Assembly (NCBI RefSeq): GCF_050920415.1
Contig: NZ_CP169309.1
DNA: 64,000 nucleotides
Source: Escherichia coli
GTDB lineage: Bacteria > Pseudomonadota > Gammaproteobacteria > Enterobacterales > Enterobacteriaceae
Reading direction: 5' to 3' (one strand)
The position numbers were made by a program. Each line of letters opens with the position of its first letter. Position 1 is the stretch's first letter. Positions 3,001 through 9,000 of this stretch are shown in pieces.

Positions 3001-6000
3001 CGATTTTAGGGTACAGCCGTTGGCAGCATGATGACTATCTGAATGCGATAGTCAATTGGTATCATCAACAATATAAAACTGAAATCAAACCAGAATGGAT
3101 CACCTATAGCCCAAGCGTGATGTACTCCATTGCTAAAGCAATAGAGTTATTGACATCGCATGGTGATAATATTCTCGTTTTTACACCTGTCTATAATGCA
3201 TTTTTTGATATAATTAAACATAGCGAGAGAAATATTCTGACAGCCTCTTTGATTATAAAAAATGAGGGGGGCTACGCTATCAATTGGCAAGATTTTGATC
3301 TTAAGATTCAAAGCGCAAAGATGGTGTTATTATGTAATCCTCATAACCCGACAGGAACCGTCTGGTCGGAAGAAGAGCTGCATAAAATCGCTGCAAGCTG
3401 TGCAAGACATAATGTCTGGTTATGTTCAGATGAAATTCACAGTGATTTTGTTTTTAATCGTAGCTTTACATCTGCGCTTAAAATAAAAAAAGAAAAAGTA
3501 GTGGTGTTTAATTCGATATCGAAGACATTTAATGTTCCTGCGCTAACAGGATCGTATATGATTTCAACTGACGATAATTTTAATCATAAGTTCAGGACGA
3601 TATCAAGATATCGCGATTTTGTAAACTCCCCATCCGTACTGAATATAATTGCAACTATTATTGCCTATAACGAATGTGAGGGATGGTTAAAGTCATTAAA
3701 GGCACATATTGCCTCTAACATTCAATTCACCCAGCAGTATCTGAACGAAAATACTCCAGAATTGATTGTAAGGCCTGCTGATGGTTGCTATTTTTCGTGG
3801 ATAGATTGCTCTGCTATTGGTTATCCCTTTGATGAATTCTACAGTCGATTAATTCATGAAGGCAAAGTGGGCATTATGGCGGGGAATGTCTATGGAACGG
3901 AGGGGGAGGGCTACCTTCGTCTGAACCTGGCCTGCGGTCGAGAAAAATTATATATGGGGCTTACGCGTCTTGCGAGTGTAATTAAAAATATTAATCAAGG
4001 AAAATAAAAATGAACAGCACGGATCTTATCCATCTCATTAAACATTTTATGCGTAACGAACATAAAGCAGTTGAAGAAGTTATTGATTCCCCCCTTTCGG
4101 AGGTCGCAAATTTAATTAAAGTATTACAGTCTTGTCAGGGGAAAGTTGTTTTTATTGGTGTCGGTAAGTCCGGTATTATTGCCCGAAAACTCGCCGCAAC
4201 ATTTGCCAGCACTGGAACTCCCTCGTTTTTTGTTCACGGTACTGAAGCCGTACACGGCGATCTTGGGATGGTGGCGAAAGATGATGTTGTTATTCTTATT
4301 TCAAACAGTGGTGAGACGACAGAAATCCTGGCAACACTACCTAGTCTGAAAAAAATGGGTAATTATTTGATCTCCTTTACCCGCAGTCATCGCTCATCGC
4401 TTGCGATAAGTTGTGATTTATCCGTTGAAATTCCCGTAAAAAGTGAGGCGGATAATTTAGGTTTAGCGCCGTCATGCTCATCAACAGTCGTTCTGGTTGT
4501 TGGTGATGCGGTGGCGCTTGCGCTCTCCGAATTGAAAAAGTTTACTTGTGCTGATTTCGGCTTATATCATCCAGGAGGTGCGCTCGGTATTAAAGCAAAC
4601 TCATAATTTTAGAATATAAAACAGTAACCGGTCACGCCATCTTTTGGGGTGGCGTTCATTGATGTGAGTGTCAGCTATGAAAAACGTTCTGGTCACCGTT
4701 CCCAGCTTTTCAGCGCGTTGTGTTTCTGCCAGCAAGCTGCTAAGAGAAAATCATTTTAACCTTATTATCAAGAATAATGTGGAGCATCTGGTTAAATCAG
4801 AATCCACAGTATTACGAGAATCTATTTGCGCAGTCATTGCCGGAAAAGATTGTTATCAAGCGGATACGTTATCGCGACTACCAGGAGTGAAAATAATATC
4901 GAGATTCGGGACAGGGATTGATAATATTGATCTTCATACGGCTCGACAATCAGGTATTGTGGTCAATAATGCTGTTGGGATTAATTCAAATGCAGTCGCG
5001 GAATTTATCATTGGTCTTATTTTTGCGAGCATGAGAAATATCCCCGGTAGCTATCATGCGATGCAAAATGGTTATTGGGGCGAGTCGCATGGCTGCGAGT
5101 TACAAGGTAAACGTATTGGCCTGCTTGGCTACGGCAATATTGGCAAAACACTGGCGAAAAGGTTATCTGGTTTTGATGTTGAGCTTTTAGCTTTTGACAA
5201 ACAACCCGATTTCCAGGCCGCAGGCAAAGATGGAGTTCAGTTCGTATCAATTGAAGATATCTTTATGCAGTCTCATGTCATCATCGTTCTTTTGCCATTT
5301 TCTCCGGAGCTGGAGAACTTCATTAGTCATAAATATTTGTCGATGATGCGCAATGGTGCTCTTATCATCAACGCCGCAAGGGGAAAGTTGCTGGATGAGA
5401 GTGCTTTACTTCAGGTAATTGAAGAACGAAATGTTTTTGCAGCACTGGATGTGTTTAGCTCTGAACCGCTAGCGCAATTTAGCCCATTGCTACATGCCAG
5501 GAATATCATTACAACGCCGCATATTGCGGCCGCCACCGTTGAGTCATACCAGCAAACCGGGATATACGTTGCCAGGTCGATAATAGATTTCTTTGCAGGA
5601 AGGGAGATAAAAAACGTGCTGTGAGTTCAGCTAAGGAAGATTTCAGGTACAAAAAAACCGCAATCTGTGAAACATATTGCGGTTTATCAGCATCATAAGT
5701 GTTGGTTGCGGGGGCCGGATTTGAACCGACGACCTTCGGGTTATGAGCCCGACGAGCTACCAGGCTGCTCCACCCCGCGTCACCGTACTGCTTTACTTCA
5801 TCAAATTTTGATTGGTTGCGGGGGCCGGATTTGAACCGACGACCTTCGGGTTATGAGCCCGACGAGCTACCAGGCTGCTCCACCCCGCGTCACCGTACTG
5901 CTTTACTTCATCAAATTTTAATTGGTTGCGGGGGCCGGATTTGAACCGACGACCTTCGGGTTATGAGCCCGACGAGCTACCAGGCTGCTCCACCCCGCGT

Positions 6001-9000
6001 CACCGTACTGCTTTACTTCATCAAATTTTAATTGGTTGCGGGGGCCGGATTTGAACCGACGACCTTCGGGTTATGAGCCCGACGAGCTACCAGGCTGCTC
6101 CACCCCGCGTCCGTGGATGCGCACTATACTCCGCTCGCGTTTTCATGCAACCTTTTTTTTACCCAGATCACGGATTTGGTATGATTTTGAGCAAAAACAA
6201 ATCACTAAAGCCTGTTTTTTGTGCAAAATTTGCGTCAGGGAGAGGCTGCTCATTTCATTAAACGCGGCGGTTTGTTATCTTCATTGCGCCTTATTTTTTA
6301 AACTGAAGAAGAGAACAATGAAAGGACGTTGGGTAAAGTACCTTCTTATGGGCACGGTTGTGGCAATGCTTGCCGCCTGCTCTTCCAAACCAACCGATCG
6401 CGGACAGCAATATAAAGACGGGAAATTTACCCAGCCTTTCTCTCTGGTAAACCAGCCAGATGCCGTTGGCGCGCCAATTAACGCCGGTGATTTTGCCGAG
6501 CAAATTAACCATATCCGTACTTCGTCACCGCGTCTGTATGGCAACCAGAGTAATGTTTATAATGCGGTGCAGGAGTGGCTACGCGCAGGCGGTGATACCC
6601 GCAATATGCGTCAGTTCGGCATTGACGCCTGGCAGATGGAAGGTGCCGACAACTATGGCAACGTGCAGTTTACGGGCTATTACACGCCTGTCATTCAGGC
6701 GCGCCATACCCGTCAGGGCGAGTTCCAGTATCCTATTTACCGTATGCCGCCAAAACGTGGTCGTCTGCCGTCTCGTGCTGAGATCTACGCGGGAGCATTG
6801 AGCGATAAATACATCCTCGCTTACAGCAACTCTCTGATGGATAACTTCATTATGGATGTGCAGGGTAGCGGGTATATCGATTTTGGTGATGGCAGTCCGC
6901 TTAACTTCTTCAGCTATGCCGGAAAGAATGGTCATGCCTATCGCAGTATTGGTAAGGTGCTGATTGACCGTGGCGAAGTGAAAAAAGAAGATATGTCGAT
7001 GCAGGCGATTCGTCACTGGGGTGAAACACACAGTGAAGCCGAGGTTCGCGAGCTGCTGGAACAGAACCCGTCTTTCGTCTTCTTTAAACCGCAATCTTTT
7101 GCTCCGGTGAAAGGGGCAAGTGCGGTGCCGCTGGTTGGTCGCGCTTCAGTTGCGTCCGATCGTTCCATTATCCCGCCTGGTACAACTTTACTGGCAGAAG
7201 TGCCGCTGCTGGATAATAACGGCAAATTTAACGGTCAGTACGAACTGCGGCTGATGGTGGCGCTGGATGTCGGTGGTGCAATCAAAGGCCAACACTTCGA
7301 TATTTATCAAGGTATCGGGCCGGAAGCCGGACACCGCGCAGGTTGGTACAACCACTATGGACGTGTTTGGGTGCTGAAAACCGCCCCGGGCGCAGGTAAC
7401 GTCTTTAGCGGCTGATGTGTTATTCTGTATACCGTTTTGACGGATACGACAGGGTGAGGGATAACCTCGCCCTTTTTAATTCTGAGGTGCTATGTCTGTG
7501 GTAATTAGTGATGCATGGCGTCAGCGTTTTGGTGGCACTGCGCGTCTGTATGGTGAAAAAGCGTTGCAACTGTTTGCTGATGCGCATATTTGTGTGGTCG
7601 GTATCGGTGGCGTCGGTTCCTGGGCGGCGGAAGCGCTGGCGCGTACGGGGATTGGCGCAATCACACTTATCGATATGGATGATGTGTGCGTCACTAATAC
7701 CAATCGGCAAATTCACGCGCTGCGAGATAACGTCGGGCTGGCCAAAGCGGAAGTAATGGCGGAGCGTATTCGCCAGATTAACCCGGAGTGCCGTGTAACG
7801 GTGGTAGATGACTTCGTGACGCCGGATAACGTAGCGCAATATATGAGTGCCGGTTATTCGTACGTGATTGATGCCATTGATAGTGTGCGACCCAAAGCGG
7901 CGCTGATTGCTTATTGTCGGCGCAATAAAATCCCTCTGGTCACGACTGGTGGTGCTGGTGGGCAGATTGATCCGACGCAGATTCAGGTTACCGATCTGGC
8001 GAAAACGATTCAGGACCCTCTGGCGGCGAAGTTGCGCGAGCGCCTGAAAAGCGATTTTGGCGTAGTGAAAAACAGCAAAGGTAAGCTCGGCGTGGATTGC
8101 GTGTTCTCTACCGAAGCGCTGGTGTACCCGCAGTCAGACGGTACGGTGTGCGCGATGAAAGCCACGGCAGAAGGGCCGAAGCGGATGGATTGTGCATCTG
8201 GATTTGGCGCGGCGACGATGGTGACCGCCACCTTTGGTTTTGTTGCGGTTTCTCATGCGTTGAGGAAGATGATGGTGAAAGCGGCGCGTCAGGGGTAAAC
8301 AATCAGGTCGGATGCGACGTGAACGTCTTATCCGACCTGGTTTTGCGCTTAACCCTGCTTCGCCGCCGCGATAATCGCCTCGCTTAACGCATTCAACCCC
8401 TGACTGCGAGAGGCGCTAAGTTGCCCACGCAATCCCAGCTCATCAAACAATGCCAGCGGCGACTGTGCCTGCAATTCGGCGGCGGTTTTCCCCTCAACGG
8501 CAGTCAACAACACCGCCAGCAGGCCGCGCACAATGCGTCCTTCGCTGTCGCCAAAGAAATGCATCGTGCCGTTTTCAGCCACGGTATATCCCAGCCAGAC
8601 GCGGTTTTCGCATCCGGCGATCTCTTTAGCCTGCGCTTTTAACTCGTCTGGCAAAGCTGGAAGCTGTTTCCCCAACATAATTAGCTGACGATATTTGTCT
8701 TCCCATTGAGTCAACGGCGCGAAAGTTTCGTGTAACGTCTTTACGGTAACGGTTGTGCCGAACGGATGTCCGGCGAATTGCGGGTTCGTCATTAATCCAC
8801 CAATAATTCCAGCGCACGGTCAACGGCATTCACCAGCGCATCCACATCACTCTTTGTATTATATGGCGCAAAAGAGGCGCGCAGTGTGCCGGTTACGCCT
8901 AATTCTGCCAGTAGCGGCTGAGCGCAATGCTGCCCGGCCCGCAGGGCAATGCCGTACTCCGCCAGCAGCGTCACCATATCGCTGTGATGAACGCCAGCAA

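Follow-up and report, generated by a model that had tools for sequence, protein, structure and literature searches.

A probable four-gene allele of the metZWV initiator tRNA operon in an Escherichia coli genome

How many initiator transfer RNA (tRNA) genes does the metZWV operon of Escherichia coli carry, and by what route might that number change? The question is raised by a stretch of 64,000 nucleotides from an E. coli genome (assembly GCF_050920415.1, contig NZ_CP169309.1), hereafter the window, in which four tRNA-fMet genes stand head to tail at positions 5703-6109. Our best explanation, which we hold as a whole to be very probable, is that this array is the metZWV initiator tRNA operon in a four-gene allele. 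A sequence-only reading of the window had put the array one copy above K-12 metZWV, and we find that K-12 DH1 does carry three genes at the same amiC/mltA locus.

Both ARAGORN and Rfam family RF00005 place four minus-strand genes for tRNA-Met(CAT) at 5703-5779, 5813-5889, 5923-5999 and 6033-6109, each scoring 61.4 bits against RF00005, and ARAGORN reports no further tRNA genes in the window. Direct comparison showed the four 77-nt genes to be mutually identical, and chance cannot account for four copies of one 77-mer at a period of exactly 110 bp. Tandem Repeats Finder returned a single repeat array at 5702-6111 with a period of 110, 3.7 copies and 99% matches. The sequence-only reading had described four perfect 110-bp units without a single mismatch. 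Its coordinates are exact and the four genes are indeed identical, but the array holds only three spacers, giving 407 bp and 3.7 units; from 6110 on, past the fourth gene, the sequence is promoter and leader and is unrelated to the spacer. Nor is the array free of mismatches, as position 5810 is a G where the equivalent positions 5920 and 6030 are A, the sole difference inside the array. On the plus strand the spacer at 5780-5812 therefore ends in …TTTTGAT (type sG), and those at 5890-5922 and 6000-6032 end in …TTTTAAT (type sA). Units 5813-5922 and 5923-6032 show 0 mismatches. As the four genes lie on the minus strand, transcription runs from right to left, and the features of the locus are as follows.

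6123-6150, minus strand: predicted metZWV promoter, with -35 TTGCAT at 6145-6150, a 16-nt spacer and -10 TATAGT at 6123-6128 (read from the sequence)
6033-6109, minus strand: tRNA-fMet1 gene copy 1, promoter-proximal, metZ position (ARAGORN, Rfam 61.4 bits)
6000-6032, minus strand: 33-bp spacer of type sA (…AAATTTTAAT on the plus strand; sequence comparison)
5923-5999, minus strand: tRNA-fMet1 gene copy 2 (ARAGORN, Rfam)
5890-5922, minus strand: 33-bp spacer of type sA, same sequence as 6000-6032 (sequence comparison)
5813-5889, minus strand: tRNA-fMet1 gene copy 3 (ARAGORN, Rfam)
5780-5812, minus strand: 33-bp spacer of type sG, with G at 5810 (sequence comparison)
5703-5779, minus strand: tRNA-fMet1 gene copy 4, transcribed last, metV position (ARAGORN, Rfam)
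about 5651-5685, minus strand: intrinsic-terminator-like hairpin ACCGCAAU…AUUGCGGU followed by a U run, 3' of the last tRNA gene (fold)
6318-7415, plus strand: mltA, a conserved gene flanking the array at its promoter end (RefSeq annotation)
397-5624, plus strand: sugar-utilisation cassette of ~5.5 kb reaching from amiC to the array, outside the array proper (RefSeq annotation)

Are these genes initiator tRNAs, and is the locus metZWV? The four genes have the sequence that we take to be that of K-12 tRNA-fMet1, and exact copies of the window sequence are present at the K-12 DH1 locus. In each gene ARAGORN puts the anticodon cat at position 35, and folding gives the anticodon loop CUCAUAA. The initiator feature C1 x A72, with 1:72 unpaired, is present, and every pair from 2:71 to 7:66 is G-C or C-G. 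Within the D stem, GAGC/GCUC, the fold contains the A11:U24 pair (U24 being linear position 25), which is an initiator identity element. All four genes encode the CCA end. The anticodon stem, UCGGG/CCCGA, has three G-C pairs at its bottom (G29-G31 : C39-C41), and three consecutive G-C pairs at this place are a conserved initiator feature (PMC3017606). The sequence …GAAGGUCGUCGG… further marks the genes as the G46 isoform (tRNA-fMet1) and not the A46 isoform of K-12 metY, a distinction made in a recent preprint (bioRxiv 10.64898/2026.04.16.719103).

The surroundings point the same way. Over its first 15 kb the window is base-for-base the same as RefSeq record NZ_CP169399.1 (strain MFDS1022581, animal-source food, South Korea), where the array occupies 1000893-1001299 and the annotated order is amiC, the 5.5-kb cassette, four tRNA-Met, mltA, tcdA, csdE and csdA. 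In K-12 DH1 the order is amiC, three tRNA-Met, mltA, and the same placement of mltA and amiC identifies the window locus as metZWV. Besides the mltA neighbour, the window shares with K-12 metZ-metW-metV the mature tRNA of G46 type, the upstream promoter sequence, the 33-bp sA spacer and the head-to-tail layout. It differs in having four genes and not three, in its distal spacer, which is sG where K-12 has a form with two offsetting 1-nt shifts (sG'), in the cassette that separates the array from amiC, and in the terminator region.

The reverse complement of 6110-6144 has exactly the sequence of tgaaaacgcgagcggagtatagtgcgcatccacgga, the primer of Kapoor et al. for the K-12 metZWV knock-out, whose end falls at the first tRNA gene, and promoter-down mutations have been mapped at the metZWV -10 box (PMC3017606). 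After the predicted -10 box comes the GC-rich stretch GCGCATCC. The assignment of the -35 and -10 hexamers is our own reading. A consensus scan of the window for promoters and terminators reported neither a minus-strand promoter nor a terminator for the array; the promoter was passed over because its -35 hexamer, TTGCAT, matches only 3 of 6 positions. From this single promoter (about 6123-6150) one transcript would carry four tRNA-fMet1 separated by 33-nt spacers and would end at the hairpin (about 5651-5685).

How unusual are four copies? The sequence-only reading had proposed counting copies across E. coli assemblies, and we carried out this count in 5,426 complete E. coli genomes, using bare-array queries with E-value limits that only alignments longer than k-1 copies can pass. 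A census by query coverage was dropped, as off-register BLAST pieces were joined and three-copy genomes gave coverages of 58%, 67% or 100%. The four-copy query matched 66 of the 5,426 genomes at 92 places, with a maximum of two per genome, and this resolves into 40 four-copy and 26 five-copy genomes. The three-copy query matched 4,999 genomes at 5,091 chromosomal places, in agreement with the place count expected from the classes (4933 + 2×40 + 3×26 = 5091), and the two-copy query matched 5,194 genomes. The resulting distribution, in which some members of the low-copy classes could be repeat collapse in assemblies relying on short reads, is given below.

0 or 1 copy: about 232 genomes, 4.3%
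2 copies: about 194 genomes, 3.6%
3 copies: about 4,933 genomes, 90.9%
4 copies: 40 genomes, 0.74%
5 copies: 26 genomes, 0.48%

Four copies are thus a rare allele, at about 1 in 100 genomes. The sequence-only reading would have been refuted had most strains carried four copies, and the census shows that they do not. About 9% of complete genomes differ from three copies, with gains (1.2%) rarer than losses (7.9%), and the annotation of sampled records by the Prokaryotic Genome Annotation Pipeline (PGAP) concurs, listing from one to five tRNA-Met genes. Three copies, the state by which metZWV is known from K-12, are therefore the common condition of the locus and not a fixed property of it. BL21(RP) (NZ_CP084683.1) was excluded from the census classes. 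The two-copy query matched it over 73% (query 25-161) at 4491140-4491276, where a single tRNA-Met is annotated ~4.3 kb from the record end, and this copy may be rearranged or engineered.

This raised the question of how the fourth copy arose, on which the spacers are informative. With V for the gene transcribed last and Z for the promoter-proximal one, the usual array reads V-sG-W-sA-Z on the plus strand. The window's nearest neighbours at this locus have three copies, and their sequence is shorter by exactly 110 bp. In the nearest of them, EC42405, the spacers are sG,sA and are sequence-identical to those of the window, which has sG,sA,sA; the flanks differ from the window at 15 of 4203 bases on the left and 64 of 4391 on the right. 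The window array equals the EC42405 array with one 'tRNA + sA' unit added and no new junction sequence. One of the two sA units (spacers 5890-5922 and 6000-6032) would then be the extra 110 bp, and from the sequence it could be either. We propose that, in an ancestral three-copy array, Z of one chromosome copy paired out of register with W of the other in a single exchange, which would duplicate one 110-bp 'tRNA + sA spacer' unit and give V-sG-W-sA-X-sA-Z. The route may have been unequal sister-chromatid recombination or replication slippage.

If the same process works in both directions across E. coli, it would generate alleles of one to five copies with predictable spacers, and the predicted forms were found as follows.

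Exchange W × V, predicted sG,sG,sA with four copies: seen in DEC5A O55:H7 and HS
Exchange Z × V, predicted sG,sA,sG,sA with five copies: seen in MRSN346355 and GABEEC10
Reciprocal product, sG only with two copies: seen in HUSEC2011
Reciprocal product, a single gene with no spacer: seen in WP7-S18-ESBL-09 and CE0032f

The sequence-only reading had suggested that identical units permit unequal recombination, and the spacer haplotypes with one, two, three, four and five copies fit this idea well, as each can be read as a single-step exchange product. Four-copy arrays adjoin amiC in HS, DEC5A and XL10-Gold, the sugar cassette in the window and 2014C-3050, and a type VI secretion system island in FDAARGOS_1297; three flank backgrounds argue for several independent origins. 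The alleles of HS, DEC5A O55:H7, FDAARGOS_1297, 2014C-3050, the MRSN346355 lineage and GABEEC10 share with the window the locus, the tRNA and the 110-bp unit. They differ from it in spacer haplotype (sG,sG,sA or sG,sA,sG,sA), in flank (amiC directly, or the secretion island), or in both, and these differences among the expanded alleles again argue for independent events. Taken together, the sequence comparisons indicate that copy-number change at metZWV is recurrent. We also considered whether a scar of island integration had caused the fourth copy, and ruled this out because copy number varies within every flank type.

In HS (NZ_CP185286.1; positions 1011-1197 of the stretch analysed) both middle tRNA-fMet genes share a C65-to-U variant, so the point mutation came first and the duplication of the unit followed. 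The variant reads GGGGACC on the plus strand and yields G49-U65 in the T stem, and half of the HS array is thus variant initiator tRNA. A further four-copy array, in the K-12 derivative XL10-Gold (NZ_CP081008.1; positions 901-1307 of the stretch analysed), has the spacers sA,sA,sA where K-12 DH1 has sG',sA, a state that could come only from two or more events, from gene conversion, or from an error of assembly or polishing.

Could the fourth copy in the window be such an error, in which the strain has three true copies and an assembler or polisher inserted one 110-bp unit? Short reads alone cannot resolve 110-bp units that are nearly identical over a 407-bp array, and the XL10-Gold case indicates that the locus may be wrong in some records. 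Several observations do weigh against our reading of the window. The exact allele is unique in the collection, with one 100% match (NZ_CP169399.1), and the four-copy state of the strain rests on one assembly; its nearest relatives, which differ by 0.4-1.5% in the flanks, all have three copies and hence offer no within-lineage confirmation; and as to the route, the sequence fits RecA-dependent exchange and slippage alike. The record is nevertheless a closed 'complete genome', the array is much shorter than one long read, and sG,sA,sA is a pattern expected from biology. Expanded arrays are also real elsewhere, with HS showing four copies in two assemblies and one five-copy allele recurring in at least four independent assemblies. 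MRSN346355 (USA), AR_0137 (origin unrecorded), and CRE389 and 2020N08-094 (both Taiwan) carry that allele (sG34,sA,sG34,sA, where sG34 is a 34-nt distal-type spacer) in identical form, their flanks showing 0 or 1 mismatches over 4 kb; three of the four are recorded as human. Its presence in isolates from different laboratories or collections argues that expanded arrays are real and stably inherited, and this MRSN346355 lineage probably accounts for most of the 26 five-copy genomes. We therefore regard an assembly artefact in the window as unlikely, and return to the four-gene allele as the preferred explanation.

What would a fourth gene do? Levels of tRNA-fMet track gene copy number (PMC3017606), in agreement with the sequence-only reading, which had held that initiator tRNA dosage matters. 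When metZWV is deleted, initiator tRNA falls to about 25% and growth is about 20% slower (PMC8248024), and metZWV is among the few tRNA operons whose deletion gives a clear growth defect (PMC11480407). Initiator tRNA abundance influences both growth and the fidelity of initiation (PMC3017606, PMC8248024, PMC11480407), and loss of metZWV has been published to allow initiation by non-initiator tRNAs. A fourth gene on the transcript would raise the tRNA-fMet output of the operon by about one third, and the total number of initiator genes would go from four to five if metY, which lies outside the window, is present. A modest rise in initiator tRNA dosage is thus a plausible effect.

It is conceivable that the extra copy was selected as an amplification because the strain needed more initiator tRNA, through an fmt or folate defect, peptide deformylase inhibitors or fast growth, and is not near-neutral. 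There is a precedent in Salmonella typhimurium, where amplification of metZ-metW compensates for the loss of formylation in fmt mutants (Nilsson 2006, as cited in PMC2859245); like the window, those mutants gained tandem initiator tRNA copies at the homologous locus and with them a greater supply of initiator tRNA. The influence of initiator tRNA on growth and fidelity would also speak for selection, the standing of 91% of genomes at three copies in spite of recurrent change suggests stabilising selection on copy number, and the five-copy allele persists in a widely sampled clinical lineage. The amplification in the Salmonella mutants, as far as that source describes it, was 'high-level' and laboratory-selected on a formylation defect, whereas the window comes from a natural isolate, has gained just one unit and shows no sign of selection. 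We saw no sign of an initiation defect within the window, fmt, def and infB being outside it and not examined. Gains are fewer than losses and both are scattered among backgrounds, a pattern that one would expect if mutation and drift act around an optimum. Selection for the fourth copy is, in our judgement, very improbable. A broader version of this idea, which we also think unlikely, is that the array is a tunable dosage locus at which unequal exchange supplies alleles of one to five copies and selection fixes the optimum of each lineage. The five-copy allele of the clinical lineage in the USA and Taiwan would then be one example and the one-copy alleles the other extreme, and the window allele would be an adaptive setting of the capacity or fidelity of translation initiation and not a neutral variant. 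A four-gene allele formed by a single exchange, of small effect on dosage, remains the explanation that we favour.

The 3' side of the array is itself variable. In K-12 amiC lies directly beside metV, in other strains a type VI secretion island (tssB/tssC/tssK) is found there, and in the window the place is taken by the sugar cassette, which suggests a variable insertion point. The cassette is carried by about 550-564 of the 5,426 genomes and comprises a PRD antiterminator pseudogene (frameshift and internal stop), a phosphotransferase system EIIC component, MalY/PatB, a KpsF/GutQ-like isomerase and a 'phosphoglycerate dehydrogenase'.

Elsewhere in the window, at 39509-42630, mazG follows relA after 95 bp, with mazE and mazF not annotated between the two. 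We take the K-12 order to be relA-mazE-mazF-mazG, and the strain appears to be without the MazEF toxin-antitoxin pair at this site. At ~45941-49505 three adjacent TPM-domain pseudogenes (one with an internal stop, one with a frameshift, one truncated) lie beside an intact LemA-family gene. Two expected small RNAs are in their usual positions by Rfam, a full-length CsrB at 28819-29178 on the plus strand (380.9 bits) and GcvB at 10433-10638 on the minus strand (199 bits), adjoining gcvA.

How much of this is new? Nothing is new about the operon, its tRNA, the way in which tandem copies change in number or the logic of dosage, and PGAP/RefSeq already annotates four tRNA-Met genes in NZ_CP169399.1 and 39 further four-copy genomes. 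Our search of the accessible literature found no earlier report of natural metZWV copy-number variation, that is, of the 1-to-5 polymorphism. A 2026 preprint on six strains compared tRNA gene counts from GtRNAdb and found the metZWV sequences nearly identical, and the accessible part of it does not report a difference in initiator tRNA copy number (bioRxiv 10.64898/2026.04.16.719103). The census is accordingly a small new descriptive result, within which the four-copy array of the window is an ordinary rare allele of a known locus. The formation of each allele can be read from its spacer haplotype, and the tRNA gene counts of one reference strain do not hold for the whole species. As the abundance of initiator tRNA governs the rate and fidelity of translation initiation, the gain of one gene may plausibly bring a small change in dosage to the strains that carry it.

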